Source of the DNA: Planctomycetota bacterium
Lineage (GTDB): Bacteria; Planctomycetota; UBA1135; UBA2386
NCBI GenBank assembly: GCA_965223545.1
Contig: OZ245006.1
Location: 2,432,001-2,496,000, forward strand
DNA length: 64,000 nt
Direction of reading: 5' to 3'
Shown: piece after piece, positions 17,615 through 57,303 of the stretch
How positions within the stretch are numbered: position 1 is the stretch's first letter
How the letters are laid out: each line of letters starts with the position of its first letter
Program-made: the position numbers and the translations under genes
The notes under the pieces: model-generated
Database searches by the model: none
What the model was told of the DNA's origin: nothing
Seen by the model: the letters and a program-made list of their open reading frames with translations, nothing else

Positions 17615-17761
17615 TGCCCCAACGCTACTCCCCAAAGCAAACGGCACAAACGGGGACACCCCGAACCTGGCCTCCGGCAAACCCCGACACAGTTCGGGCC
17701 GCGCCGTTGCGCCGCAAACCCGACCAGTCGATCATGTCGCGCCCTCCCCTTCGAGTCGCCG

Positions 17762-19432
17762 ATGTCGAATCCCGCCCAACCCCGGGTGATCCGCGCTCCC
17801 CGCGGCGCCAGTCTGTCCGCCAAGTCTTGGCTCACCGAAGCCCCCCTGCGCATGCTGCAGAACAACCTCGATCCCGATGTGGCCGAGGCGCCGGACGAGC
17901 TCGTCGTCTACGGTGGGATCGGTCGCGCCGCGCGCAGCTGGGAGTGCTTCGAGCGCATTCTCGACGCGCTACGCCGGCTCGAGGCCGACCAGACCCTGCT
18001 GGTCCAGTCCGGCAAACCCGTCGGCGTGTTCCAAACCCACCCCGACGCGCCCCGCGTGCTGATCGCCAACTCCAACCTGGTGCCGCACTGGGCCACCTGG
18101 GAGCACTTCGGCGAGCTCGACCGCAAAGGCTTGATGATGTTCGGCCAGATGACGGCCGGGTCGTGGATCTACATCGGCAGCCAAGGCATCGTCCAGGGCA
18201 CTTACGAGACCTTCGTCGAGATGGGCCGCCAGCACTTCGGCGGCGACCTCGCCGGCAAGTGGATCCTCACCGGCGGCCTCGGCGGAATGGGAGGTGCCCA
18301 GCCCCTGGCAGCGACCATGGCGGGCGCGTCGATGCTGGCGGTCGAGTGCCGCCCCGAACGCATCGCCATGCGTCTGCGCACGGGCTACCTCGACCGCGAG
18401 AGCCACGATCTCGACGAGGCGCTGCGACTGGTGACCGAAGCTTGCGAGCAGGGCGAGGCACTGTCGGTCGGCCTGTTGGGCAACGCCGCCGACGTGTTCG
18501 CCGAGCTCGTGCGGCGCGGCGTGCGCCCCGATGCGGTCACCGACCAAACCAGCGCGCACGACCCGGTCAACGGCTACCTACCCCAGGGGTGGACCGTGGA
18601 GCAGTGGGATCGAGAACGCGCCCAGAACCCCGACACGGTGGCGGCCGCGGCCAAGACATCGATGGCCGCGCACGTGCGCGCGATGCTCGCGTTCCACGGG
18701 CAGGGCGTGCCGACCTTCGACTACGGCAACAACATCCGCCAAGTCGCGCTGGAAGCCGGTGTGGAGAACGCCTTCGACTTCCCCGGCTTCGTGCCGGCCT
18801 ACATCCGACCGCTGTTCTGCCGCGGTATCGGTCCGTTTCGATGGGCAGCACTGTCCGGCAACCCCGAGGACATCTACCGCACCGACCAGAAGGTCAAGGA
18901 GCTGATCCCCGACGATCCGCACCTGCACCGCTGGCTCGACATGGCGCGCGAGCGCATTCACTTCCAGGGGTTGCCGTCACGCATCTGCTGGGTCGGACTC
19001 GGCCAGCGCCACCGCCTCGGCCTCGCGTTCAACGAGATGGTCGCCCGCGGCGAGCTCGAGGCACCGGTGGTGATCGGCCGCGACCACCTGGATTCGGGGT
19101 CGGTCGCGAGCCCCAACCGCGAGACCGAGGCGATGGCGGACGGCTCCGACGCGGTCAGCGACTGGCCGATCCTCAACGCGCTGCTGAACACGGCGAGTGG
19201 CGCGACTTGGGTGTCGTTCCACCACGGCGGCGGGGTCGGCATGGGCTTCTCCCAGCACGCCGGCCTGGTGATCGTCTGCGACGGCACCGAGGAGGCGGCA
19301 AAGCGCGTCGGCCGCGTGCTGTGGAACGACCCGGCCACCGGCGTGATGCGGCACGCGGACGCCGGCTACGAGATCGCCCGCGACTGCGCCCGCGAGCACG
19401 GCCTCGATCTGCCGATGCTGGGGGACGCGTGA
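17762..19432 (+). CDS. hutU: Urocanate hydratase
   Basis: [71 protein letters not shown]. True start at 17762, not 16250. Confidence 0.98.
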
Positions 19433-20970
19433 CGACCGAGACGATCCGCCCCGGCGCGATGTCACTGTCCACGCTGCGCGCCATCGCGCGCGATCGCTTG
19501 CGCGTCTGCGTGCACGCCGATGCACGCCCCGGCGTGGAGGCCAGCGCCCGCACTGTCGAGGAGATCCTCGCCAAGGGCGCGACCGTCTACGGCATCAACA
19601 CCGGCTTCGGCAAGTTGGCGCACACCTCGATCCCCACCGACAAGCTGAACGAGCTGCAGCGCAATCTGGTCCTGTCCCACAGCACGGGCGTGGGTGAGCT
19701 GCTGGACGACGACGCGGTGCGCCTGGTCCTCGCACTCAAGGTGGCATCCCTGGCGCGCGGGCATTCCGGTGTGCGCTGGAGCGTGATCGAGGCGCTGCAG
19801 CGGTTGATCGAACGCGACGTGCTGCCGTGTGTGCCGGCCAAGGGATCGGTCGGCGCGTCCGGCGACCTGGCACCGTTGGCGCACGTCGCCGCCCTGCTCC
19901 TCGGCGTCGGCGCCGCCCGCATCGACGGCAGGCAGGTCGCCGCACCCGATGCGCTGCGGCACGCCGAGCTCGAGCCGCTGCAGCTCGGGCCCAAGGAGGG
20001 TCTCGCCCTACTCAACGGCACGCAGGTCTCGACCGCACTCGCGCTGCAAGGCCTGTTTGCCGCCGAGGACGCGTGCGCCGCCGCCCTCGTTGCCGGCGCG
20101 CTGTCGGTCGAAGCAGTGATGGGCTCACACCGCGCGTTCGACAGCCGCATCCAGGAGCTGCGCGGCCAACCCGGCCAAGTCGACGTCGCCGAGGCCCTGC
20201 GCCACCTGCTCGCCGGCAGCGCCATCGTCGAAGCGCACGCCGACTGCGACCGCGTGCAGGATCCGTACAGCTTGCGCTGCCAACCGCAGGTCATGGGCGC
20301 GTGCCTCGATCACCTGCGATTCGCAGCAGGTGTCCTGCAGCGCGAGGCCAACGCAGTCACCGACAATCCGCTGGTGTTCGCGCAGGCGAATGACGTGCTC
20401 TCCGGCGGCAACTTCCACGCGCAGCCGGTGGCGATGGCCGCCGACGGGCTGGCGCTGGTTCTGGCCGAGACCGGGGCCCTGTCGGAACGCCGCATCGCCC
20501 TCTTGATGGACCAGACGCTGACCGCCGGCCTGCCACCGTTCTTGGCCGCGGGAAGTGGAGTGCACTCGGGGCTGATGATCGCCCACGTCACCGCCGCCGC
20601 GCTGGCCTCGGAGAACAAGACCCTGGCGCATCCAGCCAGCGTCGACAGCCTGCCCACGTCGGCCAACCAGGAGGACCACGTGTCGATGGCGACCTTCGCG
20701 GCGCGCCGCTTGAGCGAGATGGCGGACAACACATCCGCGATTCTCGGCATCGAGTTGATCGCTGCCGCCGAGGGCATCGAGTTCCGCCGGCCGCTGACGA
20801 CTTCGACCGCACTGGAAACCGCGATGACCGCGCTGCGGACCCGCGTGCCGCGGATCGACGCCGATCGATTCTTGGCGCCCGACCTGGCCGCCGCCGGCGC
20901 TTGGGTGCGCAGCGGCGCGCTGCGCGGCATCGCCGGCTTGTCACTGCCGAGCGACTTCGACCAGGGCTGA
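19429..20970 (+). CDS. hutH: Histidine ammonia-lyase
   Basis: [11 protein letters not shown] motif [35 protein letters not shown] start overlaps the hutU stop. Confidence 0.97.
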
Positions 20971-24635: not shown

Positions 24636-26668
24636 GCCGAGTAGCCGCGGGGGGTTGCCCCCCCGCAGCTCTCACAGAACCGGACTTGTGGGTCACACAT
24701 CCGGCTCTTCAGGACGGTATCCCCCAAAGGGGCCGCCAGTCGTAGCGGCGCTCGTCCCAGAGCTTGGAAAGCGACACCAGCCGCTCAGCAAACCACTGAT
24801 TGGGATAAGCGCGTTTGATCGCTCCCGAGTTGCTCTGCCACCACGTGCCACGCCGGCCAAACGCGGTGCGTGCAGCCGACTGCCAGCTGCACCCACGGGC
24901 GACAAGGTCTCGGAAGAGGTATCGCGGTCTCTTCTTCTGCCGAATGATGATCGCCCGCAGGCGTCGTCGAATATGGCCATCGAGATTCCGCAAGGTCCGC
25001 CACGCGGCCTTCGTGATCAGCTTGAAGTAGCCGATCCAACCACGGAGGTAACGGTTCAGTCGTTCGATGCACCAGGACAGCCGACCACCCCAGGACCGCG
25101 GCGTAAGCTCACGGATTCGGGCGTCGATGCGATCCAGAGTGCGACGGGACAACTGCACCGTCAGCCAGCCCTTTCGAGTTGCGCCTACGCGAAACCCGAG
25201 GAAGTGCCGGCGATGGGCCAGGTCGACGGAACTCTTCGCTTCGTTCACTTTCAGTCGCACGCGACGTTCGATGAACCTGCGAATCGAAGCCATGACCCGG
25301 TGTCCTGAGCGCTCGCTACCGACGTAGATATTGCAGTCGTCGGCGTAGCGCACAAAACGCAACCCGCGTCGTTCCAACTCCCAGTCCAGTTCGTCCAGGA
25401 CGATGTTGGACAGCAGAGGTGATAGCGGGCCGCCCTGGGGCGTTCCTTCTTCCGTGATGACGCGGGTGCCATCTGGAAGAACCACGTTCGCTTTCAGCAT
25501 CAGGCGGATGATCCGCAGCACCCGACGGTCCTTCACCTTCTGAGCCAGCCGGTCCAGGAGGCGTTGGTGATGGACACGGTCGAAGAACTTCTCCAAATCG
25601 ATGTCCACCGTGTACCGCCGACCCTGCTTCACGTAACCCGCTGCTTCGGCGATCGCTGTGTGGGCTCCCCGCCTCGGCCGGAAGCCGTGGCTGCTGTCGT
25701 GGAACGTCGGGTCGTAGATCGGCTCCAGAATCTGGCGCACGGCCTGTTGGACCCAGCGGTCGATCACGGTTGGAATCCCGAGACCCCGCTGCCCACCACT
25801 GGGCTTCGGGATCCACACCCGACGAATATCGCCGGGCGCGTAGGTCTCCATGAGCAGAGCATCGCGGAGTTTCGGGAGCAGGTGTTTCGCATGACGCTTG
25901 ACCTCTGACACCGTCTGTCCGTCGACGCCCGGGGCGCCCTTCTTGCTTACGACATGTGCCAGTGCGCTTCGCAGGTTGCCCTGCTCCGCGACCAGCTCCA
26001 GCAGATGGCAGTAGCCGTCCGCTGGCGGCGGAGCCGATTCCGATCGATGGCTGCAATCCGTCGTAGGCACCGACGTGGACTTCGTGGCAGATTCGTCTGC
26101 CCTTCCGGCCACGCCGTCCCCTTGCGGGCTCTCGGCGAAAGCGAACTGCAGTTGCCGTGGTTTCGGCTTTCTCATCCTGTCACCCCCTTCGCTCCACCGG
26201 CATTACCCGGCTTCATCACTACTACGGGGTGATCCGACTTCTCTGCATGCCTTGGTGGGTCGTCGTTGCCTCCTCCCCACCTACCGCTCGAAGCGGACAC
26301 ACAGAGATCTCCCTGGGTAAGAACGCAGAGTTTCGCGCCGCCGCCGGTTCCAGTACTCCGAGGTCGCGACTGGATATCGGGCGTCACGTTGGATGGCACG
26401 CTGACCCAGACCTCGAGAGCCTTACGGAACTTCGCTTTCGCTCGGTGCTGCGCTGCGTCTAGGGCTTCCATCCCACACGACCTCGCGGGAACAGCACGGC
26501 ACGGTGTCCGTCCTGTTCTGGCATCCCGGATCAACACCGCGCACCGCCCTCTCGGACGGCACACGGCTCCCCTTTCTGCCTCGTGCAGCTGCCTTCGACT
26601 CATGGTTTCCTCCAGTACGGATCCATAAAGAACTTTCATCTTCAACTCTGCGCCCATGCCAGGCGCAA
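24636..26668 (-). mobile_element. Group II intron (RT/maturase without endonuclease), antisense to the host sulfatase
   Basis: 5' TTGCGCCTGGCATGGGCG; D1 closing TTCTTACCCAGGG; J2/3 GGA (26235-26233); D5 GAGCCGGATGTGTGACCCACAAGTCCGGTTC (24707-24677); D6 with bulged A at 24642; 3' end CTACTCGGC. Confidence 0.92.
24709..26175 (-). CDS. ltrA: Group II intron reverse transcriptase/maturase
   Basis: KGAPGVDG, IPKPSGGQRGLGIPTVIDR, SHGFRP, DLEKFFD, GTPQGGPLSPLLSNI, RYADD, FLGF, domain X LRGWIGYF. No HNH domain. Confidence 0.97.
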   Translation of the reverse strand: MRKPKPRQLQFAFAESPQGDGVAGRADESATKSTSVPTTDCSHRSESAPPPADGYCHLLELVAEQGNLRSALAHVVSKKGAPGVDGQTVSEVKRHAKHLLPKLRDALLMETYAPGDIRRVWIPKPSGGQRGLGIPTVIDRWVQQAVRQILEPIYDPTFHDSSHGFRPRRGAHTAIAEAAGYVKQGRRYTVDIDLEKFFDRVHHQRLLDRLAQKVKDRRVLRIIRLMLKANVVLPDGTRVITEEGTPQGGPLSPLLSNIVLDELDWELERRGLRFVRYADDCNIYVGSERSGHRVMASIRRFIERRVRLKVNEAKSSVDLAHRRHFLGFRVGATRKGWLTVQLSRRTLDRIDARIRELTPRSWGGRLSWCIERLNRYLRGWIGYFKLITKAAWRTLRNLDGHIRRRLRAIIIRQKKRPRYLFRDLVARGCSWQSAARTAFGRRGTWWQSNSGAIKRAYPNQWFAERLVSLSKLWDERRYDWRPLWGIPS

Positions 26669-33565: not shown

Positions 33566-33606
33566 TCTCGCAAGCCCATCGAATCCAAGCCCCATTGGAG
33601 AAGACG

Positions 33607-34527
33607 ATGCCCGACATCATCGATCAGTGGTGCCGCTACATCGACGAGTTGCCCACCGGAACGGAAGAAGAAGTCGCCATCAAGCGACGCAGCCTGTTCT
33701 TTCACAGCATCGAAATCGAAGTCCATCCGGCGCAGACCCAGTACTCCGAGTTTCGAGCACCCGCGGAAGCTCTGCGCGTGCGACTGTCCGCACGCATGAA
33801 GCAGCGCGCCGTGGCGATCCGCTGCGGTCGCAGTCTCGGGTCGACACCGGAGGAGAAGCAACGACTCGATGCCGAGAACAACGGAGTCCGGGAGCCGGCG
33901 ACAAAGATCTCGAACTGGCTCGTCACCCTGATCAACAAACATCTCGTCGTGGGCCAGAAGCCGCCGGGAGAGGCCCTCGCCGATGCCTTCGACGCATTCG
34001 CCCTCGGCAAGCTGCGCTGGAGAAACTCCGAGTACGGCGTCCCTGATTCCAGCCAAGTCCTGCTGTTCGCCGAGATGGCGATCCTGTTTCGACAGCTCGG
34101 GCTGACGCCCGACATCTGGCGATCTTCACTGCACAGCTTCGTCCGTGGTGCCGAGGTGTTTGCCGAGATCGGCTGGGATGGCGGTCCACGCAGGGATTCC
34201 AGCTACAACGCGTGGGGCTACGCGCGACAGTTCAGCGACGCGCGATTCCGCAAACTGCGTAGTAGCTACCCGCCGGTACCGGCCAATTCCGACCGCGACC
34301 TCGAATCGCTCGAGTATCGCTACGGGGCACTGGCACTGTGGATGTTGCGCGATCAGCTTCAGGCATACCCGGGCTCGGCCAGTCGCCCCGATGGCCCCCC
34401 GCCATCCTCGTCCCCCAACACGTCAGCCACGAGCTCAGGAGATCTGACGAGCGCCGGAGAACCCCAGAATGTCGTGGCACCGCAGGCCCCGCCAAAGGGC
34501 AAGTGGCTCAAGGGTTCCCGCGCGTAA
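33607..34527 (+). CDS. Hypothetical protein
   Basis: GGAG RBS, 306-aa ORF with protein-like composition, no recognised motif. Confidence 0.65.
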   Translation: MPDIIDQWCRYIDELPTGTEEEVAIKRRSLFFHSIEIEVHPAQTQYSEFRAPAEALRVRLSARMKQRAVAIRCGRSLGSTPEEKQRLDAENNGVREPATKISNWLVTLINKHLVVGQKPPGEALADAFDAFALGKLRWRNSEYGVPDSSQVLLFAEMAILFRQLGLTPDIWRSSLHSFVRGAEVFAEIGWDGGPRRDSSYNAWGYARQFSDARFRKLRSSYPPVPANSDRDLESLEYRYGALALWMLRDQLQAYPGSASRPDGPPPSSSPNTSATSSGDLTSAGEPQNVVAPQAPPKGKWLKGSRA

Positions 34528-34539: not shown

Positions 34540-36333
34540 CTACTTCGAACGCTGGTCGACCAGCTCGAGCAGCACCTGCAGCTTGACGAAGTCGACCTCT
34601 CGGATCTGGACCTGGATGGCGTAGCCCTCGGTGAACGAGTAGAGCCGGCCGCCGGCGGAGAGCTGGAGCGTCGGTCCCTTGACCTTCGGCCGCTCGCCGA
34701 TCGAACGCGACGGCAAGAACCCGCTGATGTTGAACTCGGGCAGGTGCACCTCCAAACCGAAGTTGGAGACGCGGCGGATCTTGGCGCGGTGCACCTCGCC
34801 GATGTGCGGCGCCATCAGCTGACACACCTTGAGATCGAACATCGCCTGCTCGGCCATCTCGGCGACATCGGCCTGCACCGAGCTGTGCATGGCCTGCTCG
34901 TTGAGCGCCTGCACCAACTGCTCGCTCTGCAGCTCCTCGGCCGCGGCGGCCCCCTGGCTCTCGACCGCCCACAGCCAGCGGTGCACGACGAGATCGGGGT
35001 AGCGGCGGATCGGCGAGGTGAAGTGCAGGTAGGCCTCCCGCGCCAGGCCGAAATGCCGGGCGACGTCTTCGTGGTCCCGCACCTCGTACACCGCGCGCTC
35101 GATCAGCCCCATGATGCGCTGGATCAGCGCCTCGGCGTTGGGCCGCGCCCGTGCCTGGCGGATCAACCGACCGATGTCCCGGCCGGTGAGCCGCTCCTTG
35201 TCCGGCACCCGAATGCCGTGGTCCAACAGCATCTTGGCCACTGCTTCCACCTCGTCGAGCGGCCGCTCGGGGTGCACGCGGTAGATCGTCGGCAGTCCAC
35301 GCCCGCGGAACAGGTCGCCGACGGCCTGGTTGGCGGCCAACGCGGTCTCCTCGATCAGGGTCTGCGAGAAGTAGCGCGGCGCATCGACGATGCGCACGAT
35401 CTCGTGCTGCGCGTCGAACTCGCATTTGCGCTCGACTGACTGCATACGCAGCGAACCGCGCGCATCCCGGATCTGCTGCTGCCGCTGCGTCCACTTGCGA
35501 AAGGCCTGCAGCGCCGGCGCCAAGTGCCGGATGGCACGGGTCTCGGCCGAGTCCACCCCGTCCAGCAGCTCTTGCACCACGCGATACGTGTTGCGCTGCA
35601 CGCTGCGGATCACGCTCTTGTGCACCCGCGCGGCGACGCGTTCGCCCTGCGGCGTGAACTCCATCACCACCGAGTAGGCCAGCCGATCACGATCCGGCAC
35701 CAGCGAGCACAGGTGGTTGGACAACGACTCCGGCAGCATCGGCACGACTTGGTCGGCGAGGTAGACGCTGGTGCCACGCGCCAACGCCTCCCGATCGAGC
35801 GCGGTGCCCGGGCGGACGTAGTGCGCGACATCGGCGATGTGCACCCCCACTTCGACGTTGCCGTTGTCGAGGGCGGCGATCCCGATCGCGTCGTCGTAAT
35901 CCTTCGCGTCGTCGCCATCGATCGTGAAAATGGTCTCTCCCCGCAAGTCGACCCGACCGGCGTAGTCGGCCGGATCCGGGTCGCGCGGCAGCCGTTCGAC
36001 CTCTCGTTCGACGTCGTCGGGGAACACCGTGCGCACCCGAAACGAGGCCAGCAGCTGCATCTCGTCCGACTCGAGGTCGCGGTAGACCTCGGGCCCGTGC
36101 GCCATCGGCCCGAACGCGGGCGGCCGCGACACGATCTGCGCGCGGACGGTGTCCCCGCCACTCTCGTCGACGTCGTCCCCGCCGGGCGCGCCGCCGTCCG
36201 CGCGCTCCAGGGTCCAGCCGCGCTCTGGCGCTGCGTCCGCCGGCGGTGGCGCTTCGCCCCGCGCGCTCTGCAGATCTTGAAAGCTGCCGAACGACCGGTT
36301 CGGCTCGTCGTTCTTTCGCTTGCGTTTCGCCAA
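34540..36333 (-). CDS. rnr: RNase II/RNase R family exoribonuclease (RNB + S1; N-terminal CSDs reduced)
   Basis: FTIDGDDAKDYDDA, VHIADVAHYV, RGTSVY, HFGLA, HFTSPIRRYPDLVVHR, C-terminal S1 domain. Confidence 0.85.
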   Translation of the reverse strand: MAKRKRKNDEPNRSFGSFQDLQSARGEAPPPADAAPERGWTLERADGGAPGGDDVDESGGDTVRAQIVSRPPAFGPMAHGPEVYRDLESDEMQLLASFRVRTVFPDDVEREVERLPRDPDPADYAGRVDLRGETIFTIDGDDAKDYDDAIGIAALDNGNVEVGVHIADVAHYVRPGTALDREALARGTSVYLADQVVPMLPESLSNHLCSLVPDRDRLAYSVVMEFTPQGERVAARVHKSVIRSVQRNTYRVVQELLDGVDSAETRAIRHLAPALQAFRKWTQRQQQIRDARGSLRMQSVERKCEFDAQHEIVRIVDAPRYFSQTLIEETALAANQAVGDLFRGRGLPTIYRVHPERPLDEVEAVAKMLLDHGIRVPDKERLTGRDIGRLIRQARARPNAEALIQRIMGLIERAVYEVRDHEDVARHFGLAREAYLHFTSPIRRYPDLVVHRWLWAVESQGAAAAEELQSEQLVQALNEQAMHSSVQADVAEMAEQAMFDLKVCQLMAPHIGEVHRAKIRRVSNFGLEVHLPEFNISGFLPSRSIGERPKVKGPTLQLSAGGRLYSFTEGYAIQVQIREVDFVKLQVLLELVDQRSK

Positions 36334-36409
36334 GTCGGCAAGCGTAGCGCTTCACCGGCGCTCGCGCTCAGGGGTCGACCGCGGTCTGGCCCAACGGTAA
36401 AGACATGCC

Positions 36410-38470
36410 GTGACACAGCCTCGTCCGCTGCCGGTGCGCAAGGCCTCACCACCGCCGCCCATCGATCTCAACCCGCGCACCGATCCGCCTCTGGACTTCC
36501 CGGACGCCGACTTCGGAGCCCTGGGCGCCGCCGACTACGACCGCCTCGGTCTACTGTGCGGGGTCGAGGTCCACCAACAGCTGGCGACCACCTCCAAGCT
36601 GTTCTGCCGCTGCCCCAGCGGCGTGGTCGGGCGCAGCGTCGACGCCGAGGTGTTGCGCCACATGCGCCCTACGCTGTCGGAGATGGGTGAGTACGACGGC
36701 ACCGCGCTGATGGAGTTCAAGACGCGCAAGCAGATCATCTATCTGCTCGACCGGCGGACGGTCTGCACCTACGAGATGGACGACACCCCGCCGTTCCCGA
36801 TCGACGAACAGGCGGTGCGGTTCGCCATCGAGATCGCGCGGCTGTTCGGCCTGGACCTGGTCTCCGAGCTGCACGTGATGCGCAAGCAGTATCTCGACGG
36901 CTCGATTCCCACCGGCTTCCAGCGAACCGGCATGGTCGGGCTATCCGGGGCGATCCCGTTCCGCGACAGCGAGCTTGCGGGCGACCGGGTGCTGCGCATC
37001 CGCCAGCTCAGTCTGGAGGAGGACTCCTGCCGCGAGGTCAGCGACATCGGCCACAGAATCACGTTTCGCACCGATCGACTCGGCATGCCACTGATCGAGA
37101 CCGTCACCGAGCCGGACCTGCTCACGCCGATGGACGCCGCCCGCGGCATCCGCTTGCTCGCCTCGGTCGCGCGCGCGAGCGGCCGCGTGCGCCGGGGTGC
37201 CGGGGCCGCCCGCCAAGACGTCAACGTCTCCATCGCCGGCAGCCGGCGCATCGAGATCAAGGGCGTGCCGAGCATCCGTCTGGTGCCGCGGCTCGTGCAC
37301 AACGAGGCCTATCGCCACCTGAACTTGTTGCGGCTGCGGGCCGCCCTGCACGACCGGGGCATCGGGCCGGACGCGTTCGCGATTCCGGACGGCGGCTGGC
37401 CCTGGGAGCAGAGCGACATGGTGGCCGAGGTGCGCGCACAGCTGCGCGGCTGCCGTCATCCCGCCGTGAGAGCGGCGATCGACCGCGGCGAGCGCGTGTG
37501 CGCGGTGCGCGTGCCGGGGTTCGAGGGGTTGATCACGCATCCAACCCAGCCGGGGCAGACCTTCGAGCAGGAGCTGGCGGAGCGCGTGCGCGTGATCGCC
37601 TGTCCGACCCACCATCCGTTCTTGGCGACCTCGGACGCCGACACGGTGCTCGGCAGCCTGGCGTGGCGCGAGCTGCGCCAGGCCTGCGGCGCCGGCGAGG
37701 GCGATGCGGTCGTGCTGGTGTGGGGGGAGCTCGCGGACGCAGCGACCGCCGCGCGCGAAGTCTTGATCCGCGCCGCGGACGCCACCGTCGGCGTGCCTTC
37801 GGAGACCCGGCAAGCCCACGCCGACGGCGGCACCGGCTTCGAGCGCATCCTGCCCGGCCCGCAGCGCATGTATCCCGACACCGACACCCCGCCGCTGCCG
37901 ATCCCGGACTCGTGGGTCGCCGCGGCCGACGCAAGCCTGGGCGAAGCACCGTGGCGACGCGAAGCGCGCTATCGCGACCTGGGCCTGGGGCCCGCGCTGG
38001 CGACTGCGGCGGCGCACGCGACGTGGGCCCCGCTGCTGGACGCCATCGCGCCTTCGGCCGACGCGATCACCACGCGGCGGCTCGCATTCGCGCTGATGAA
38101 ACGCCTGCCGCCGTGGCACCGCAGCAGGCGCGATGCGACGCAACCGACTGCGGCGCGGCTCACGCCGCTGGTCGCAGCGCTCCGCGATGGGAGCCTGTTG
38201 CCGTCGGCGTTGGAAGCGGTGCTCGACCGCGTCCTGCGCGAAGAGCAACGGCCGGTCGGCGAGATCCTCGCCGAGCACCGCCCCGGCCCGCTGCCGGCCG
38301 AGGCCGAGCTGATCCGCGCGCTGCCGGCCGAAGCCAGTCGGCGCGGTGATCCCGGCGCTCCCCTGCGGTGCGCCATGGGCCGACTGCAGCGCGGTCGCCG
38401 CCGCGGCATCATCGATCCGCTGGCGTTGCGCGCGGCGCTGATGCGGTTGACACGGGAGGCGCGCCGATGA
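36410..38470 (+). CDS. gatE: Glu-tRNA(Gln) amidotransferase subunit E (archaeal type)
   Basis: GVEVHQQL, KLFCRCP, RPTLSEMGEYD, MRKQYLDGSIPTGFQRT, LEEDSCR, DRLGMPLIE, RQDVNVSI, GAD-like insertion (VPGFEGL..QPGQTF..ELAE), LPGPQRMYPDTD. Confidence 0.9.
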   Translation: MTQPRPLPVRKASPPPPIDLNPRTDPPLDFPDADFGALGAADYDRLGLLCGVEVHQQLATTSKLFCRCPSGVVGRSVDAEVLRHMRPTLSEMGEYDGTALMEFKTRKQIIYLLDRRTVCTYEMDDTPPFPIDEQAVRFAIEIARLFGLDLVSELHVMRKQYLDGSIPTGFQRTGMVGLSGAIPFRDSELAGDRVLRIRQLSLEEDSCREVSDIGHRITFRTDRLGMPLIETVTEPDLLTPMDAARGIRLLASVARASGRVRRGAGAARQDVNVSIAGSRRIEIKGVPSIRLVPRLVHNEAYRHLNLLRLRAALHDRGIGPDAFAIPDGGWPWEQSDMVAEVRAQLRGCRHPAVRAAIDRGERVCAVRVPGFEGLITHPTQPGQTFEQELAERVRVIACPTHHPFLATSDADTVLGSLAWRELRQACGAGEGDAVVLVWGELADAATAAREVLIRAADATVGVPSETRQAHADGGTGFERILPGPQRMYPDTDTPPLPIPDSWVAAADASLGEAPWRREARYRDLGLGPALATAAAHATWAPLLDAIAPSADAITTRRLAFALMKRLPPWHRSRRDATQPTAARLTPLVAALRDGSLLPSALEAVLDRVLREEQRPVGEILAEHRPGPLPAEAELIRALPAEASRRGDPGAPLRCAMGRLQRGRRRGIIDPLALRAALMRLTREARR

Positions 38471-39858
38471 GTGCCGCGGATCCGCTGAAGGGCTACCGCC
38501 CACCGATGCGTGACCTGATGCAGCGCTTCGACGTCGGAGTCTGGTCCGAAGTCACCGTCCGCACCAGCCGCGGAACCTTCGAAGGCCTGGTCTTGCCGCG
38601 CTCGGAGACCGCCGACGCCGACCATCTCGTCCTCAAGCTCGTCAGTGGCTACAACATCGGCCTGCGCCACGACGTCATCGAGGACATGGTCGCGACCGGC
38701 TACCGCGAGGCGCTCTACAAGATCCCCGAGGAGGAGTTTCCGGTCGACCCCAGCAAGCCGAAGGTGATGCTGCTCGGCACCGGGGGCACGATCGCGTCCC
38801 GCCTCGACTACCGCACCGGCGCGGTGATCCCGGCGTTCAGCCCGGGCGAGCTCTACGGCTCGGTGCCCGAGCTCGCCGAGGTCTGCAACCTGGAGACCGA
38901 GAAGCTGTTCGGCGAGTTCTCGGAGAACATCGGTCCCCGACACTACCTGGCGCTCGCGGAGCGCATCGGCAGCGCGATCGCGGACGGCTACGACGGCGTC
39001 GTCGTCGGCCACGGCACGGACACCATGCACCACACCGCGGCCGCCCTGAGCTTCATGGTGCAGCGACCGCCGGTGCCGATCGTCATGGTCGGCAGCCAGC
39101 GCTCCTCGGACCGGCCGTCGTCGGACGCCGCGCGCAACCTCATCGCGGCGGCGCATGCCGCCGCGCACGGCGAGATCGCCGAGGTCATGGTCTGCATGTT
39201 CGGCCCGACCTCGGACCGTTACAACCTGCTCCACCGCGGCACGCGCGTGCGCAAGATGCACAGCTCGTACCGCAGCACGTTCCGCACGCTCGGCGACGTG
39301 CCGCTGGCGCGCATCGAGGACGGTGCGCTGATCCGCATCCACGACTCGGTGCGCACGCGCCGCGACGACCGTGAAGTGATCGTGCAAGCCCGCTTCGACG
39401 AACGCGTCACGCTGCAGTACTACTATCCCAACATGCAGGCCGACGTGATCGACGCACTCGTCGACCGCGGCTATCGAGGCATCGTGTTCGCCGGCACCGG
39501 CCTCGGCCACGTCAACCGCCTGGTCTACCCAGCACTCGAGCGCGCCCGCGACGCCGGCGTGCAGGTCTACATGACGCTGCAGACGCTGTGGGGGTTCGTG
39601 CAGATGCACGTCTACGAGACCGGCCGCGAGATCTTGGAGCTCGGCGTCGTCCCCTTGGCGAACATGCTGCCCGAGGTGGCGTACGTGAAGCTCGGCTGGG
39701 CGCTGGGCCTGCACCCCGACGATCCGAAGGCCGTGCGGGCGCTGATGGAGACGCCGATCGCCGGCGAGATGACCGCGCGCGAGCCGCACGACGGCTACTT
39801 GGTCTTCCAAGGCGGGACCCCGGAGATCCGCGCGCTGTTGGGCGAGATCTGGTCCTAG
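38467..39858 (+). CDS. gatD: Glu-tRNA(Gln) amidotransferase subunit D (asparaginase-like glutaminase)
   Basis: GatD-specific N-terminal domain (FEGLVLPR..HLVLKLVSGYNIG), TGGTIASRLDYRTGAV, HGTDT, GSQRSSDRPSSDA, RKMHSSYRSTF, GTGLGH, MLPEVAYVKL. ATGA overlap with gatE. Confidence 0.93.
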   Translation: MSAADPLKGYRPPMRDLMQRFDVGVWSEVTVRTSRGTFEGLVLPRSETADADHLVLKLVSGYNIGLRHDVIEDMVATGYREALYKIPEEEFPVDPSKPKVMLLGTGGTIASRLDYRTGAVIPAFSPGELYGSVPELAEVCNLETEKLFGEFSENIGPRHYLALAERIGSAIADGYDGVVVGHGTDTMHHTAAALSFMVQRPPVPIVMVGSQRSSDRPSSDAARNLIAAAHAAAHGEIAEVMVCMFGPTSDRYNLLHRGTRVRKMHSSYRSTFRTLGDVPLARIEDGALIRIHDSVRTRRDDREVIVQARFDERVTLQYYYPNMQADVIDALVDRGYRGIVFAGTGLGHVNRLVYPALERARDAGVQVYMTLQTLWGFVQMHVYETGREILELGVVPLANMLPEVAYVKLGWALGLHPDDPKAVRALMETPIAGEMTAREPHDGYLVFQGGTPEIRALLGEIWS

Positions 39859-39862
39859 AAAA

Positions 39863-39910
39863 ATCGACGGTTGTCGATATACAGCCTTGCCAATATCGAC
39901 AACCGTCGAT
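39863..39910. promoter_or_regulatory. Double palindromic operator, probably bound by the BlaI-like repressor
   Basis: ATCGACGGTTGTCGATAT (39863-39880) and its exact reverse complement ATATCGACAACCGTCGAT (39893-39910). Each box contains ATCGAC-N4-GTCGAT. The second ends 13 nt before the blaI-like ATG. Confidence 0.75.
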
Positions 39911-39923
39911 ATTCCAGGATGGG

Positions 39924-40334
39924 ATGAGCACCCCCCGCCTGCCGGACGCCGAGCTCGAAGTCCTGGCCTGCTTGTGGCAGCAGAACGAGGCCACCGCGCG
40001 GCAGGTGCGCGAAGCGATTGCCGACTACCGCCCGCTCGCGCACGCATCCGTCGTCACCCTGCTCGGCCGGTTGGAAGCCAAGGGGCTGGTCTCCCGGCGC
40101 AAGGCCGACGTCGGCAAGGCGTTCGTCTACACGCCGACTCTGCCAGCCTCGCGGACGTTCCGCACGGTCCTCGGCGACGTGCTGCAGCGCATCTTTCGCG
40201 GCGACGGCGTCGCCATGGTGGCATCGCTGTTCGAGACCAAGCCCCCGACGCAGGACGAGCTGGTCGAGCTGCAGGCCCTGCTCGACAAGCTGAAGAAGCG
40301 GAGCAAGGCATCCACCAAGCGCAAGAAGAGCTGA
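39924..40334 (+). CDS. BlaI/MecI/CopY family transcriptional repressor
   Basis: AELEVLACLW, TLLGRLEAKGLV, GKAFVY. Confidence 0.92.
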   Translation: MSTPRLPDAELEVLACLWQQNEATARQVREAIADYRPLAHASVVTLLGRLEAKGLVSRRKADVGKAFVYTPTLPASRTFRTVLGDVLQRIFRGDGVAMVASLFETKPPTQDELVELQALLDKLKKRSKASTKRKKS

Positions 40335-40343
40335 GGACACGTC

Positions 40344-43300
40344 ATGCACACTTGGACCGACACGCTCAACGAGATTGCCCCCCGGTGGACCGAGACGGTG
40401 TGGCACGCCGGCTGGCAGGCCGCCTGCGTCGCGGCGGCGATCCTGATCCTGGTGCGCTGCTGCCCGCGCATGCCCTCGAGCTGGCGTTACGCGCTGCTGC
40501 TGTTGGCGCTGGCGAAGTTCGCCGTACCGCCGACACTGGCACTGCCGACCGGCGTGTTCAGCGCGGTCGGTTCGAGACTCGGCCACCCCGCCGCGCACGG
40601 CACGCCGGCCGAGGACCGTCCGCCGAGCGTCACCGCTCTTGTCGCCGCCGAGCGCGCCGCCGAGAGCGTGCGCCGCGCATCCACCGACACGGCCGCGCGC
40701 CCGCCAACCGCCGGCGCACCGGAAGCGGCTTCCGCGCCACGCTTGAGCTCGGCCGCGTGCCTGATGCTGATCCACTGGGCCGGCAGCGGCCTGCTGTTGG
40801 CATGGCTACTGTGCCAAGCGCGCGCCCTGCACCGGCTCACCGCGAAGGCAACGCCCGTCACCGGCGGCCCGATCGCCGCGGCGCTGCGCCGAGTGTGCGA
40901 AACCATGCAGCTGGCCAAGCCACCGCGGCTGTTGCTCAGCGACCGGCCGGTCGGCCCCGCCGCGTGTGGAGTGCTGCGCCGCTCGATCCTGATGCCGCCC
41001 AGCGCGCTGCTGCTGTCGCGCATCGAGCTGGAGACCGTGTTGGCCCACGAGGTCGCCCACCATCGCCGCGGCGACCTGCTCGCTCAGCGCCTGCAGCAGC
41101 TTGTACTGGGCACGTGGTGGTTCCACCCGCTGCTGTGGCCACTCGCCCGGGCGATCCGCAGCGCGCAGGAGGACTGCTGCGACGACGCCGTGCTGGCGCG
41201 CGGCATCACGACCAACCAGCGCTACTGCCACACGCTGCTGCGCGCGGCGGCGCTGCTGGCCGCTTCGCGCAGTGTTCCCGCGGCGGCGCACATCCTGCGC
41301 CACCGCTTGGGCACACGGCTGCGGCGCATCATGAGCCAGGGACGGCGGCCGCTCGACGCCCGGTCCTTTTCGTGGCAACGGCGCGCGGCCATCTGTGCTT
41401 GGGCGGTCGCCGCGAGCCTGGCGCTCCCCGGCCTCTCGACCCACGACCGCCAAGATCCTCGCCCACACCAGACGCGCACCGTGCGAGGCCGCGTCATCGA
41501 CGAGACCGGCGGCGGAGTCGGCGACGCCACCCTGTTCCTCGCCATCGCCGGCCGCACTCATGACATCACTGAATGGCGCGCGATCGGCTCGACCGACTCC
41601 GACGGGCGCTTCTCCGCCGCAGTCGGCGCGACCGACTTCGACGCCATGCGGCGGCGCTACCGCGTGCTGGTTGCCATCGCCAAGAGCCACGGGCCCGGCT
41701 GGGTGCAGGTCGAGGACGAGCTCGACCGCGCACTGCAGATCCGCTTGCCGGCGCCGACCTCCGCCGAGGGGGTCGTGCTCGACCTGGAGGGCCAGCCGGT
41801 CGCCGGCGCACACATCACCCCCTTGCTTTGCTACGCACCCAAGAGCGGAACGCTGAGCGAGTGGCTTGCCGCGGTGGACGCCGTATCCCCCGCCGCGGCG
41901 ATGGACTACATGGGCAAGCCGGTGAACCTCAACCAACCCGGTCACTGGCCGGCGGCGGTGACCGACGCGCAGGGCCGCTTCATCCTGCGTGGTCTGGGCC
42001 GCGACCAGCTGATACACGCGACGATCGCCGGCGACGGCATTGCCACCGATGAGATCGGGTTCGTGACCCGCGACGTCGAGGCATTCGAGAGCCACCACTA
42101 CGGCGGTGTTCTCCTGCGCGGCGGCTACCTCGAGCCGCGGTCGTACTACGGTCGCCGCATCACTCACATCGCGACGGCCGAGCGACCCGTCACCGGGGTC
42201 GTCCGGGACGCGAACACGGGCGCGCCGATCGCAGGCCTCACACTCGAAGCGGCGTTCGGCGTCAACGCCACCGGCCGCGGTGCACGCCACGTCCGCGCGG
42301 TGACGGATGCCGATGGACGCTACGAGCTGCGTGGCCTGCGCAAGGCCGACGACGGCCGCGTCTGCGTGCGGGAGTCGCTCGCGCTCGGCTACGCCGGCAC
42401 CGACCGCGCCCTGCCGAACCCACCGGGCCTCGACCCATTGATCCAGGACTTCGAGGTGCACCCGGCGGTCCGGCTGCGCGTCCGCATCATCGAGCAGGGC
42501 ACCGGCACGCCTACCGAGGCGGACGTCGTCTACTCCCCAGCCCGGGACAACCCCAACCTCCGCACTCGCGGCATTCGAAGTGTTCACACGAACCCCTCGG
42601 CCCTGCATGAGCTGCTGGCTCTACCGGGTGAGGGCGCCGTCGCCGTCTTCGCCGGGCCGGAGTATCTGACCCTCGCGGAGCGCGAGGGCGCGAGCATCGA
42701 CGAAGGCGCTTCCATCGTGCGCTTCCGTGACTACGCCACGCACGCCTACGCGGTGATCGAACCTACCGTGGGCACCTCAGAGCTCGAGCTCACATTCGAG
42801 CTCGTGCGTGGCCGGGACTACTCTCTCCAACTCTTCGACGAAAACGGGGCGGCTACCGCAGCGACGCAGCTGTTCAGCGCGCGGCACTTCGGAGGCTGGA
42901 GCCCGGCACCCCAGGAGGGCACGGCGACTCTGGCCGGGTTCAATCCACGCCGCCCGCGTACCGTGTACGCCATCGACGAAGCGCGCAATCTCGCCGGCCA
43001 CCTGACGGTCGACGACGCCAGCGCGCCGCTCCGTCTATCACTGGGCCCCGCCGGCACGATCACCGGAGTTCTGCAGGACGAGGACGGTCTGCCGCGCGGC
43101 GGGGCCTCGCTGCGCGTGACCTTCGTGCCACACGGCCGCACAGAACACCACAACACCCACGACGCATACCCACGCACCGGCGCTGACGGCTCGTTCCGCA
43201 TCGCGCCCGTGATTCCTGGCGCAGCCTATCGCATCGAAGTGCAGGTCGGTGAGGCAGACAGTGAGTACACCATGGTGCGCCGGGAGATCGTCGTCGATAC

Positions 43301-43349
43301 CGGAGAGCAACTCGACCTCGGCACGGTGCGGGCGGAGCAGTCGCCGTGA
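40344..43349 (+). CDS. BlaR1/M56 family metallopeptidase with repeated carboxypeptidase-regulatory-like beta-sandwich domains
   Basis: TM segments, LAHEVAHHRRGD, WWFHPL, EDCCD; repeated GRVxD..G..TD..GRF motifs. Confidence 0.9.
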   Translation: MHTWTDTLNEIAPRWTETVWHAGWQAACVAAAILILVRCCPRMPSSWRYALLLLALAKFAVPPTLALPTGVFSAVGSRLGHPAAHGTPAEDRPPSVTALVAAERAAESVRRASTDTAARPPTAGAPEAASAPRLSSAACLMLIHWAGSGLLLAWLLCQARALHRLTAKATPVTGGPIAAALRRVCETMQLAKPPRLLLSDRPVGPAACGVLRRSILMPPSALLLSRIELETVLAHEVAHHRRGDLLAQRLQQLVLGTWWFHPLLWPLARAIRSAQEDCCDDAVLARGITTNQRYCHTLLRAAALLAASRSVPAAAHILRHRLGTRLRRIMSQGRRPLDARSFSWQRRAAICAWAVAASLALPGLSTHDRQDPRPHQTRTVRGRVIDETGGGVGDATLFLAIAGRTHDITEWRAIGSTDSDGRFSAAVGATDFDAMRRRYRVLVAIAKSHGPGWVQVEDELDRALQIRLPAPTSAEGVVLDLEGQPVAGAHITPLLCYAPKSGTLSEWLAAVDAVSPAAAMDYMGKPVNLNQPGHWPAAVTDAQGRFILRGLGRDQLIHATIAGDGIATDEIGFVTRDVEAFESHHYGGVLLRGGYLEPRSYYGRRITHIATAERPVTGVVRDANTGAPIAGLTLEAAFGVNATGRGARHVRAVTDADGRYELRGLRKADDGRVCVRESLALGYAGTDRALPNPPGLDPLIQDFEVHPAVRLRVRIIEQGTGTPTEADVVYSPARDNPNLRTRGIRSVHTNPSALHELLALPGEGAVAVFAGPEYLTLAEREGASIDEGASIVRFRDYATHAYAVIEPTVGTSELELTFELVRGRDYSLQLFDENGAATAATQLFSARHFGGWSPAPQEGTATLAGFNPRRPRTVYAIDEARNLAGHLTVDDASAPLRLSLGPAGTITGVLQDEDGLPRGGASLRVTFVPHGRTEHHNTHDAYPRTGADGSFRIAPVIPGAAYRIEVQVGEADSEYTMVRREIVVDTGEQLDLGTVRAEQSP

Positions 43350-44683
43350 GCGCGCGCCGCTCGCCTTGGCGCCCCTACACCCCGAGCGCCGAGACTCCGT
43401 GGAACCTACGCCGCGTGGTGCACCTGCACCGCCGCGCCGCGTTCGGCGCGACCTGGCCGGAGCTGCAACGCGATCTGCGCGCCGGTCCACACGCCGCCGT
43501 CGGCCGTCTGCTGGCAGGGCCCGCCGACACCGACACCGACGCCATGGCCGACCAGCTGGCACGCGCGGCGGCGCAGAACCACGACGCGCTGCGGCTGCAG
43601 GCCAGCTGGGTGTTCCGCATGCTGCTCGGCAGCGACCCACTCGGCGAACGGCTGACGCTGATGTGGCACAACCACTTCGCCACCAGCCACCTCAAGGTCG
43701 GTCTGGCGGCGATGCAGCGCCAGAACGCGCTGCTGCGCGCGCACGCCCGCGCACCGTTCGGCCAATTGCTGCGGGCCGTCATGCGCGATTCCGCGCTCCT
43801 GATCTGGCTCGACGCTCCCCAGAACCGAGCCCGGCACCCCAACGAGAACCTGGCGCGGGAGCTGATGGAGCTGTTCACGCTCGGCGTCGGCCACTACACG
43901 GAGACCGACGTCAAGGAGGCGGCGCGCGCCCTCACCGGCTGGACGGTGATCGATGGAGGCTTCGCGCACCGACCGGACCGGCACGACGACGGCGAAAAGA
44001 CGATCCTCGGCGAGCGTGCGGCGTACGACGGCGACGCGCTCCTCACGCTCCTTCTCGACCAACCAGCGACCGCGCAACGGTTGGCGTGGCGACTGTGCGA
44101 CCAGTTTCTGGGGGAAGGCGTCGCGGAAATGGACGCCATTGGTGCGCTCGCCGACCAGCTGGCTGCCGATGATCTCCACATCGGCAATGCGGTCGCGACG
44201 GTGCTGCACTCGGAACGGTTCTTCTCGCGGGCCAACCTGGGCAGCCGCGTCTCCGATCCGGCGGCGCACGTCGTCGCCGCCCTGCGCGCGCTCGAGGCGC
44301 ACACCCCACCGCCACGCACGATCCTCGTCGCCGAGTGGGTTGCGCGGCTCGGGCAGCAGCTGTTCGCGCCCCCCAATGTCGGAGGCTGGCCAGGAGGCCG
44401 ATCCTGGCTGTCCAGTCGCACGCTGATTGCGCGGTGCAACTTCGCCCACGCACTGGTCACCGGCACCGTCACGGGACGCCCCCGCCAACCAGACCTCGAG
44501 ACCTTGGCACAGCGGCACGCGAACGAAGATCTCTCCGCGACTACCGCCTGGTTGAGCCAGCTGCTGCTGGGCGAGATGCCACCCGATCCGGTGCACGAGC
44601 GTCTCCATCTCTTGGCGCAACGAGACGGTGCCACCGCAGCGGCCGCGGCACTCTTGATGCTGCCCGCCTACCAGCTCGCTTGA
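43346..44683 (+). CDS. DUF1800 family protein
   Basis: HLHRRAAFG, LMWHNHFATS, PNENLARELMELFTLG, YTETDVKEAARALTGW, PPNVGGW. Confidence 0.92.
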   Translation: MSARRSPWRPYTPSAETPWNLRRVVHLHRRAAFGATWPELQRDLRAGPHAAVGRLLAGPADTDTDAMADQLARAAAQNHDALRLQASWVFRMLLGSDPLGERLTLMWHNHFATSHLKVGLAAMQRQNALLRAHARAPFGQLLRAVMRDSALLIWLDAPQNRARHPNENLARELMELFTLGVGHYTETDVKEAARALTGWTVIDGGFAHRPDRHDDGEKTILGERAAYDGDALLTLLLDQPATAQRLAWRLCDQFLGEGVAEMDAIGALADQLAADDLHIGNAVATVLHSERFFSRANLGSRVSDPAAHVVAALRALEAHTPPPRTILVAEWVARLGQQLFAPPNVGGWPGGRSWLSSRTLIARCNFAHALVTGTVTGRPRQPDLETLAQRHANEDLSATTAWLSQLLLGEMPPDPVHERLHLLAQRDGATAAAAALLMLPAYQLA

Positions 44684-55230: not shown

Positions 55231-57303
55231 TCAGGCGCGAATGATCGGGGTGTCCTGGGCCGGAGCCACCGCACGATCCAACAACGCCACGTCGACGCGC
55301 GCATAGTGCTCGGCGAGCGCAGTGAGAGCCCGTGCCGCCGCATCGAGGCGCAGTCGTAGCTCGCGCAGCGGAAGATGCACTCCCATCAGTCGACGCGTCT
55401 CCTCGCGCAGGGCAACGGCACGCGCTTCCAGCTCGACTTCGCGCATGCGCGCGGCTTCGATCAGCTCGCCCAAAACCACTCCGCGGTAGGCCCGCATGAA
55501 CTCGTCCCGCAGCCGCAGACGCGTTTGGCCTGCGAATTCATCCAGATAGTCGGCCATCTGCTGCCGGAGAGCCATGCGCGCGGATTCGCCCAGCCGGCGC
55601 TGCTTGGTCGCCGCGTCCACGACGCGCGTCGGCGCATGCCGCGGACCGAACAGGGAATCGCGCACCGCCACTCCCCGCCGCAGCCGGGCTGCATCGCCGA
55701 CCGTGCGGCGCACATCGATCATCTCCGGTCGCAGCGGAGTCGGTGGCACGACGACAAGGGCAGCGCGATCGGTCCGCGCGTGGGCTGTGCGGCCAATCCC
55801 GTCGAGATCGATCTGCACGGCATCGAGGGCGGCGGCCACGGGCTCCGGTACCGACAACCCCGCCGCGCCCCGGACGACGCGTTCGCTGAGCTCACTGCTC
55901 ACCGCGCGCGTGAGCTCCTCTTGATACGTGACGAGCAACGGCATCAGCTCGCCCTTGACGAGCTCGTTGAAGCTCGAATCGCGGCGGAACCAATTGTCGA
56001 TCGCGTTCGAAGCGGCGCGGCGCACGCGAGCCTCGGCGTCGTCGGCGAGCTGATCGACCTGTGGAGCGAGCGCTTCGCGCAGCGTCCGGAAAGCCCGCCG
56101 CCATTCGTGCCGGTCGATTCGACGCAACGCCTCGTTGCGCGCCGCACAAGTTTCACGCGCCGCTTCCAGCTGTGCGATGCGGCGCCCGACCGCAGCCACC
56201 TCCGGTCGGTCGCACACGCTGGAGGCCGCTCCGATCAAACGCTGCGCCCGGCGCAGGCTGTCGCCCAAGAACGCGACAACCGAGGCGGTGCTCCCCAGGT
56301 ACTCGCGCAGCTCGCCGAAGAACGCCTCGAACCGGCGATCGTTGGCCGCATCCGTGGCCAGCCGGCCGCGGCGCCGTTTGATCCGCGTGCTGGCCGCGCG
56401 GAGCAAGTCGACGGCGTGGATCTGCAGCCGGCCGTCCGCCAGCGCGCGCTTGAGCGTCGCGCTCATCGCCAGCCCCTCGAACGCCTCGACGATGCGCTCG
56501 GGATCGCGCTGCTCGAGGCTCGGCCGCAGGTCACCGTCCGGGCCCAGGTCTTGCTTGGTGGCATCCAGATTGACCAACAGGAAGATGCGGCTGAACTGTG
56601 CCAGCAGGCGGTGGAAATCGGCGAAGACCTGCTCCAAGAACAACGTGTCGCTGCGCACGACGAACACCGCGCAGGCCGCGGCGTCACGGAAATCGCGCGT
56701 CATACGGTCGTAGCCGAACCGCATCCGGGTGTACAGGCCCGGCGTGTCGACCAGCATCGCCCGGGTGCGCGCCAGCTCGCCGGCTGGAATCCGCACATCG
56801 ATGCGCCGGATCGTGCCGCGACCGTCGCGTTCGGGGTCGAACGGTCTGCCCTCCGCTTCCGCCGTCGCAATGCGGTCGGCGAGGTCGCGGTGTGCGCCGC
56901 GCATCCTCTGGTCCAACTCGGCGACGTCGCGCAGCGTTTCGCTGCGGCCGTCGTAGTCGGTCAACACAAACTCGGCGCGTGGCGCATGCGAGACGAACAC
57001 CATGCACGGATACGCTGGCAGGCTGCCGACCTCGCTGACGTACTCGCCGGCAATGGCGTTCATCAACGTCGATTTGCCACTCTTGAGCGGCCCGAAGATC
57101 GCGACGTAGGTCTGCTGGCCAACGACCTTGTCGGCGAGGGTGACGAAGGAATCGCGCACCTCCTCCAGCCGGGCTCGCATCTTCGCACCGGCCGCGGAGG
57201 GTACCGTCTCGCCAATCGCTTCCGCCGCCCGTGTCAACGGCGCGGACAGCGGCCGCAGAGTACCGGCATATTCGTGGCAGAACCTGGCGAGGAGCGAGTG
57301 CAT
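55231..57303 (-). CDS. Bacterial dynamin-like GTPase (paralog 2)
   Basis: GPLKSGKST, LVDTPGLYTRMRFGYDRMTR, TKQD; collinear with 13775-15955. Confidence 0.8.
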   Translation of the reverse strand: MHSLLARFCHEYAGTLRPLSAPLTRAAEAIGETVPSAAGAKMRARLEEVRDSFVTLADKVVGQQTYVAIFGPLKSGKSTLMNAIAGEYVSEVGSLPAYPCMVFVSHAPRAEFVLTDYDGRSETLRDVAELDQRMRGAHRDLADRIATAEAEGRPFDPERDGRGTIRRIDVRIPAGELARTRAMLVDTPGLYTRMRFGYDRMTRDFRDAAACAVFVVRSDTLFLEQVFADFHRLLAQFSRIFLLVNLDATKQDLGPDGDLRPSLEQRDPERIVEAFEGLAMSATLKRALADGRLQIHAVDLLRAASTRIKRRRGRLATDAANDRRFEAFFGELREYLGSTASVVAFLGDSLRRAQRLIGAASSVCDRPEVAAVGRRIAQLEAARETCAARNEALRRIDRHEWRRAFRTLREALAPQVDQLADDAEARVRRAASNAIDNWFRRDSSFNELVKGELMPLLVTYQEELTRAVSSELSERVVRGAAGLSVPEPVAAALDAVQIDLDGIGRTAHARTDRAALVVVPPTPLRPEMIDVRRTVGDAARLRRGVAVRDSLFGPRHAPTRVVDAATKQRRLGESARMALRQQMADYLDEFAGQTRLRLRDEFMRAYRGVVLGELIEAARMREVELEARAVALREETRRLMGVHLPLRELRLRLDAAARALTALAEHYARVDVALLDRAVAPAQDTPIIRA

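Follow-up and report, generated by a model that had tools for sequence, protein, structure and literature searches.

An archaeal-type GatDE amidotransferase pair in a planctomycetotal chromosome belongs to a widespread bacterial branch and may have changed its tRNA specificity

Locus and protein identity

The stretch of DNA analysed here (the window; 64,000 nucleotides) spans positions 2,432,001 to 2,496,000 of contig OZ245006.1 (assembly GCA_965223545.1) from a bacterium of the Planctomycetota, hereafter the host. It carries two overlapping open reading frames, gatE and gatD (Table 1), which an earlier note on this DNA had read as an intact operon for GatDE, the tRNA-dependent amidotransferase regarded as a hallmark of archaea. 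The coordinates of both frames and of their overlap agree with that note, as do the protein identities it proposed: judged on sequence, the pair is confirmed as an intact GatDE, not a GatB accompanied by an asparaginase.

The gatE product passes the TIGR00134 gatE model (363.8 bits, cut-off 319.55) and reaches only 119.3 bits with the best GatB model (cut-off 338); with NF003107 it scores 421.2 bits, under the cut-off of 456, a shortfall we ascribe to its divergent tail. Its closest solved structures are 2D6F_C (E 7e-84) and 1ZQ1_C (E 1e-79), with GatB at 1e-21 or weaker. An AlphaFold model built on 88 sequences (predicted local distance difference test score 88.2) likewise returned 1ZQ1 and 2D6F chains as the top fold-search matches, AspRS matching too. 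The GAD insertion, present as the earlier note had claimed, aligns with the insert of 2D6F and 1ZQ1; undetected in a Pfam scan of full-length GatE, it just exceeds the PF02938 cut-off of 23.4 when scanned alone (23.9 bits). The tail gave zero Pfam matches; it is modelled as helical with high confidence, and its MG core appears to align. Many members of the bacterial branch described below are annotated with PF02637, a YqeY-like tail. Residues H55, E203 and E230 correspond to His15, Glu157 and Glu184 of Methanothermobacter thermautotrophicus GatE, the Mg ligands of that enzyme (PMC2330236), and are invariant in 82/82 bacterial sequences. A GatB-type identity, as in GatCAB, was rejected on the GatB scores (at most 119 bits) and the GAD insert; the protein also differs from GatB in having no KxGKxK motif.

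The gatD product scores 488.1 bits with TIGR02153 gatD (cut-off 324) and 478.8 with NF003217 (cut-off 310), both above the type I asparaginase model (359.8), and its best solved relatives are the GatD chains of 2D6F and 1ZQ1. A GatD_N domain occupies residues 27-70, and the TGGT, HGTDT and RKMH motifs are present, as had been reported from the letters alone. The catalytic set T108, T184, D185 and K263 is invariant in 68/68 bacterial sequences, its first three members being equivalent to Thr101, Thr177 and Asp178 of 2D6F_A. A type I L-asparaginase (AnsA, a stand-alone protein of about 330 residues) was rejected in view of the length of 463 residues, the GatD_N domain and the higher GatD scores. 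No other PF00710 gene occurs in the host genome.

The pair thus resembles archaeal GatDE (M. thermautotrophicus 2D6F, P. abyssi 1ZQ1) in both subunits, fold, GAD insert, GatD_N, Mg ligands and the asparaginase-type Thr/Asp/Lys residues. It differs from bacterial GatCAB in using an asparaginase-type GatD instead of the amidase GatA with GatC. A sigma-70 promoter scan gave no match.

Table 1. Features at and beside the gatE-gatD locus, in window positions
Feature	Positions	Strand	Remarks
gatE	36410..38470	+	GTG start, 686 aa; tRNA-dependent kinase/transamidase subunit, bacterial branch
gatD	38467..39858	+	ATG start, 463 aa
ATGA overlap of gatD start and gatE stop	38467..38470	+	translational coupling inferred
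GatE Mg-ligand residues H55 (36572), E203 (37016), E230 (37097)	36572..37099	+	alignment
Altered GatE loops RGAGAARQD and KGVP	37193..37270	+	alignment
GatE-specific AspRS-like (GAD) insertion domain	37340..37789	+	alignment, fold search, Pfam
GatE helical tail, xMG core present, archaeal GxxAxG absent	38270..38467	+	model and alignment
RNB-domain ribonuclease	34540-36333	-	below RNase R cut-off

Distribution and selection

The rarity implied by the earlier note proved wrong, the pair belonging to a large branch found in bacteria. Of the 64 parts of the genome collection, 24 were scanned and yielded 476 related stretches from 596 pattern matches. The best 80 of these 476 were all bacterial by record title, with Gemmatimonadota, Acidobacteriota, Myxococcota, Ignavibacteria/Bacteroidota, Krumholzibacteriota, Aminicenantes, Planctomycetota and others represented. 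NCBI and JGI annotations already call many branch proteins GatE, atlas look-ups returned solely GatE clusters of mixed taxa, and at least one carrier, Paraliomyxa miuraensis (WP_266221403.1), is cultured.

Gene order separates the branch from its archaeal counterparts. In bacterial carriers gatE precedes gatD on the same strand (68/80 loci; ten stop at a contig end and two lack gatD within roughly 5 kb), whereas the order in archaeal-like metagenome loci is gatD-gatE in all 42 ordered cases. The two gatE genes that lack this partner over roughly 5 kb downstream, both from Myxococcota (L078, L093), fall in an early-branching subgroup. No third partner gene was common to the 87 loci inspected for one. 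Only 13 of 301 genomes in the host's class have GatE. Their scatter over several subclades, next to other phyla, suggests that bacteria have passed the genes among themselves repeatedly. Neither vector sought was evident: viral contigs held no gatE, and the single match among plasmids was partial and haloarchaeal (L339, on the Natrinema megaplasmid CP031304.1, where no gene is listed).

Across 43 close pairs, the ratio of nonsynonymous to synonymous substitution rates (dN/dS) was 0.01-0.25 in the cradle and 0.06-0.75 in the helical domain and tail where dS could be estimated. These sequence comparisons show the branch GatE to be under purifying selection, with dN/dS well under 1 in every domain. 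Mean identity among bacterial GatEs falls from 0.69 in the cradle to 0.23 in the tail, against 0.52 and 0.33 in archaeal-like GatEs.

Phylogenetic origin

Bacterial GatEs form one group, comprising 79/79 sequences in an early tree and supported at 100/99 in an IQ-TREE tree of 50 rows (GatE cradle, with four bacterial GatB as the root). The latter included Asgard-type intermediates obtained by a profile search of 50% clusters; their cluster labels name Heimdall-, Thor- and Odinarchaeota and Lokiarchaeum ossiferum, although four of the eight rows classed as Asgard-type bear no taxon name. The bacterial branch is nested among these Asgard GatEs, as sister to a Heimdallarchaeota-labelled cluster (TET29438.1; support 97/91), although this label derives from one metagenome record. 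Support for the Asgard-plus-bacteria group is 95/79, and the motif RMYPDTD is common to both. An earlier placement of the bacterial branch as sister to all archaeal GatEs was set aside: it came from sampling by the RMYPETD motif, which excludes Asgard sequences, and the best tree that includes them nests the branch. That alternative, with all archaea together, nonetheless survives testing (approximately unbiased test, p-AU 0.21). An Asgard-archaeal donor is our best estimate from these trees, not a proven one, and the old archaeal origin suggested in the earlier note is supported.

Specificity marks and tRNA-Gln

Two marks of archaeal specificity, KGxQ and GxxAxG, have been lost in the bacterial branch. 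The loop motif KGxQ occurs in 3/82 bacterial against 56/59 archaeal-like GatEs, and reads KGVP here (Gln240 in 2D6F_C); its glutamine presumably contacts the acceptor stem. The archaeal loop GxGTIRQD has become GxGA[AGT]RQD, here RGAGAARQD in place of RGxGTIRQD. The tail motif GxxAxG is retained in 2/82 bacterial and 29/59 archaeal-like GatEs and is absent from the host protein. This last motif has been implicated in the rejection of Asp-tRNA(Asn) by GatDE, and a conserved GatE loop adjoins the tRNA's first base pair (PMC2811023). Ahead of the tail MG core the bacterial residues are basic (at least two Lys or Arg in 131/182, against 25/58 archaeal-like sequences) and loosely recall the Lys-rich region of GatB. 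Among the nearest Asgard-type rows, KGxQ and GxGTIRQD are mostly present, and GxxAxG is present in several; the losses are therefore likely derived and later than the transfer.

Archaeal GatDE reads an A1-U72 pair in tRNA-Gln (PMC2330236), while bacterial GatCAB reads U1-A72. The host has one tRNA-Gln of each kind: tRNA-Gln(CUG) carries U1-A72, as does its tRNA-Asn, and tRNA-Gln(UUG), outside the window at C1:7922033-7922104, carries A1-U72 with no encoded CCA. A first sample of 61 relatives, with A1-U72 in 3/7 carriers and 1/47 non-carriers, raised co-evolution of GatDE with an archaeal-type tRNA-Gln as a candidate; it was rejected over the 301 genomes of the class, where U72 occurs in 3/13 carriers and 24/288 non-carriers (p 0.10; chance matches dropped, with 14 true hits and three more checked by folding and the remainder assessed by their matched letters). 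U72 tRNA-Gln(UUG) is thus found in 27/301 genomes, and 18 of the 24 U72 non-carriers belong to one family in which 0/45 genomes carry GatE, so that A1-U72 is not a trait of archaeal tRNA-Gln only. Among 55 further carriers one U72 tRNA-Gln was seen, by eye, the tRNA-Gln of carriers being almost all A72. Since the tRNA-Gln of carriers is mostly U1-A72, unlike that read by archaeal GatDE, the enzyme, if it acts on tRNA, must accept this pair, which is also that of the host tRNA-Asn.

Aminoacylation genes in the host and other carriers

The host genome encodes gatCAB (C1:7.14 Mb), glnS beside gltX, aspS, asnS, a GluQ gene and a glutamine synthetase, the last of which disposes of a missing glutamine synthetase as the reason for GatDE. 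Its GlnRS scores 708 bits with TIGR00440, and in its GluRS an Arg occupies the site of Thermus thermophilus Arg358, a residue tied to GluRS discrimination (PMC2978374). AsnA was not found in the host genome, and none of its three PF00733 genes passes as E. coli-type AsnB (at most 247 bits against 499). This differs from the canonical archaeal setting, in which GlnRS is absent and GluRS non-discriminating. With GlnRS, AsnRS, GatCAB and an Arg358-type GluRS available, GatDE is not needed as the main route to Gln-tRNA; the earlier suggestion of an archaeal route to Gln-tRNA(Gln) gained by this bacterium is therefore weak. Most carriers have these genes too.

The carrier set comprised 61 distinct genomes, one duplicate having been removed. 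The GlnRS-type domain PF03950 occurs in 53/61, with the reservation that this family also matches archaeal GluRS and that the host copy alone was checked. AsnRS occurs in 53/61 and GatB in 27/61, and GluRS is Arg358-type in 42/50 aligned copies and 40/43 carrier genomes. A GlnRS-type domain and an Arg358-type GluRS in most carriers imply that the supply of Glu-tRNA(Gln) should be small. In five carriers (L376, L379, L381, L445, L447) a second GluRS with Tyr, His or Glu at the Arg358 site stands beside the Arg-type copy; the Tyr copy of G309 is separated from the GlnRS-domain gene by about 3 kb. Going by these residues, the second GluRS is a possible tRNA(Gln)-charging GluRS2.

Within the Gemmatimonadota, GatE and GatB are partly exclusive. 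Of 201 genomes, less the centre genome and one ambiguous case, and classed by score with two-match genomes counted as having both, GatB was found in 5/14 GatE carriers and 150/185 non-carriers (p 5e-4, the genomes being kin and not independent); removal of three unpublished genomes leaves GatB in 147/182 non-carriers. E. coli-type AsnB was present in 7/20 genomes with neither enzyme, 1/15 with GatE only and 1/23 with GatB only, the test subsets being 20 of 35 neither-enzyme and 23 of 150 GatB-only genomes. AsnA was absent from 15/15 GatE-only genomes. The His and Gly marks of AspRS, whose roles we assume, were discarded as an uninformative gauge of Asp-tRNA(Asn) supply, His being found in 12/13 genomes with neither enzyme as well.

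Neighbourhood, composition and assembly

Domain scans (Pfam/NCBIfam) confirm the bacterial character of the neighbouring genes claimed in the earlier note, namely a BlaI-type repressor, an M56 protein, an extracytoplasmic function (ECF) sigma factor, a kinase and the ribonuclease of Table 1. Between the gatD stop and the start of the blaI-type gene, an imperfect palindrome of 16 bases occurs twice, in inverted copies (39863-39878 and 39893-39912), and is likely the operator of the repressor.

The host-like codon style reported earlier also stands: GC content is flat across the locus, GC at third codon positions is 0.89 and 0.94 in gatE and gatD against 0.91-0.94 in housekeeping genes, and tetranucleotide distance lies at the 27th percentile among 404 windows, with gatE slightly less adapted in codon usage (0.64 against 0.72-0.79). 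The window is part of an 8.07 Mb contig, in a genome that is 91% complete. Short-read contigs (35269-38832 and 38810-44000) span both borders of the locus with zero differences, giving no sign of a chimera; their reads probably derive from the source sample, so that the agreement is between independent assemblies and adds no second organism.

Elsewhere in the window, GC content dips locally at a gene for a group II intron reverse transcriptase/maturase (RVT_1, GIIM; 24709-26175, minus strand), 10 kb away from gatE. It is also lower around a 310-residue frame with zero Pfam/NCBIfam matches (33595-34527, plus strand), which has the ECF-kinase pair on one side and the ribonuclease gene on the other. 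A chemotaxis cluster (MCP, CheB, CheA-like), histidine utilisation genes and two dynamin-family GTPase genes lie at 6065-13623, 16250-20970, 13727-15955 and 55231-57303.

Discussion

Reviews up to 2022 call GatDE exclusively archaeal and rest arguments about the last universal common ancestor and the glutamine code on that restriction (PMC8762117, PMC9499178, PMC2811023). No paper on bacterial GatDE was found in the literature searched, where an earlier remark in subscription papers is possible, and the excerpt of PMC13433404 leaves GatDE unmentioned. Contrary to the reviews, bacterial GatDE is annotated in databases, and is real, intact, old and under selection.

What the enzyme does is less readily assigned. 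By analogy with the family chemistry (PMC2330236), which combines a glutaminase and an ammonia tunnel with tRNA-dependent kinase and amidation steps, GatD would free ammonia from Gln or Asn, the ammonia would pass by a tunnel to GatE, and GatE would phosphorylate and then amidate the acidic residue on the tRNA; dual-specificity (Glu/Asp) GatCAB would share this chemistry. The host pair is a GatE and GatD of the widespread bacterial branch, and we put at about even the chance that it works on bacterial U1-A72 tRNAs in the manner of GatCAB, using Asp-tRNA(Asn) as well as Glu-tRNA(Gln). In favour of this stand the invariant catalytic sites, the purifying selection, the loss of KGxQ and GxxAxG, the predominance of A72 in the tRNA-Gln of carriers, their GlnRS-type domains and Arg358-type GluRS, the partial exclusion of GatB by GatE in Gemmatimonadota, and the scarcity of AsnA and E. 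coli-type AsnB in GatE-only genomes and their absence from the host. The earlier note's alternative of a repurposed amidotransferase survives in this sense, as a changed tRNA specificity, and fits better than its Gln-tRNA route. The fuller history, which we hold slightly more doubtful than not, is that an Asgard GatDE entered bacteria once, lost its archaeal tRNA(Gln) marks and became an Asn-forming or dual enzyme replacing GatCAB in lineages of more than ten phyla. The ancestral copy would have come, on the trees, from a Heimdallarchaeia-like Asgard archaeon, followed by a swap of gene order and transfer between phyla. Gene patterns suggest that GatDE would supply tRNA-dependent asparagine where GatCAB is missing, and that in the host it would be redundant with GatCAB, as a second route or a mischarge-rescue enzyme. 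There is precedent in Bdellovibrio, whose GatCAB makes Asn in cells with both GlnRS and AsnRS (PMC4206432).

Several observations weigh against an Asn-forming or dual enzyme. The retained insertion domain, predicted to block binding of non-discriminating AspRS (PMC2943598), is the main structural objection to the use of Asp-tRNA(Asn). The five second GluRS copies lacking Arg358 could supply Glu-tRNA(Gln). AsnA was found in one of five further GatE-only genomes, the AsnB contrast between GatE-only and neither-enzyme genomes is not significant alone (p 0.10), and some AsnB-like gene occurs in 32/37 GatE-only genomes. The His mark of non-discriminating AspRS is unenriched in GatE-only genomes (7/32 vs 9/22). 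The host's class shows no GatB depletion, with GatB in 9/13 carriers (host included) and cross-hits in 37/54 non-carriers, and incomplete genomes inflate every gene absence counted here.

A specificity for Glu-tRNA(Gln) as in archaea, retuned to U1-A72 and serving as a second or rescue route beside GlnRS, is the family default, and the kept insertion domain agrees with it. Its substrate might come from a leaky GluRS, from the second GluRS of those five carriers, or from GlnRS when glutamine runs short, and Asn might be the amide donor; the host's A1-U72 tRNA-Gln(UUG) offers the pair that archaeal GatDE reads. We nevertheless consider it rather unlikely, given the GlnRS-type domain and Arg358-type GluRS of most carriers, the loss of GxxAxG, the failure of A1-U72 to track GatE and the host's glutamine synthetase; moreover, PMC4206432 (2014) knew of no bacterium with both Gln routes. 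Less probable again is a role outside ordinary translation, in which the enzyme either amidates glutamyl or aspartyl groups borne by some other carrier or acts mainly as a regulated asparaginase or glutaminase. The poorly conserved tail, redundancy in most carriers, a GatD that is the host's sole PF00710 protein and the patchy, transfer-like spread would suit such repurposing, yet the helical and tail domains remain full length and under selection, and a conserved third gene hinting at another pathway is missing from the loci. That the pair is a recent passenger, a decaying relic or an assembly chimera is very improbable and largely refuted: the slightly lower codon adaptation of gatE and the few carriers in the class are outweighed by the long contig with bridged borders, host-like composition, frames free of stops, invariant catalytic sites and purifying selection across the branch.

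A large, selected, Asgard-related bacterial branch breaks GatDE as an archaeal signature, and the motif missing from this branch is precisely the one suggested to keep Asp-tRNA(Asn) out. The branch makes testable the basis of the Glu- and A1-U72-specificity of GatDE, and the question of why archaea need two amidotransferases where bacteria manage with one. If the Asn-forming or dual reading is true, bacteria would have a third way of making amide aminoacyl-tRNA, and an enzyme taken for an archaeal "signature" would have switched its specificity in nature.

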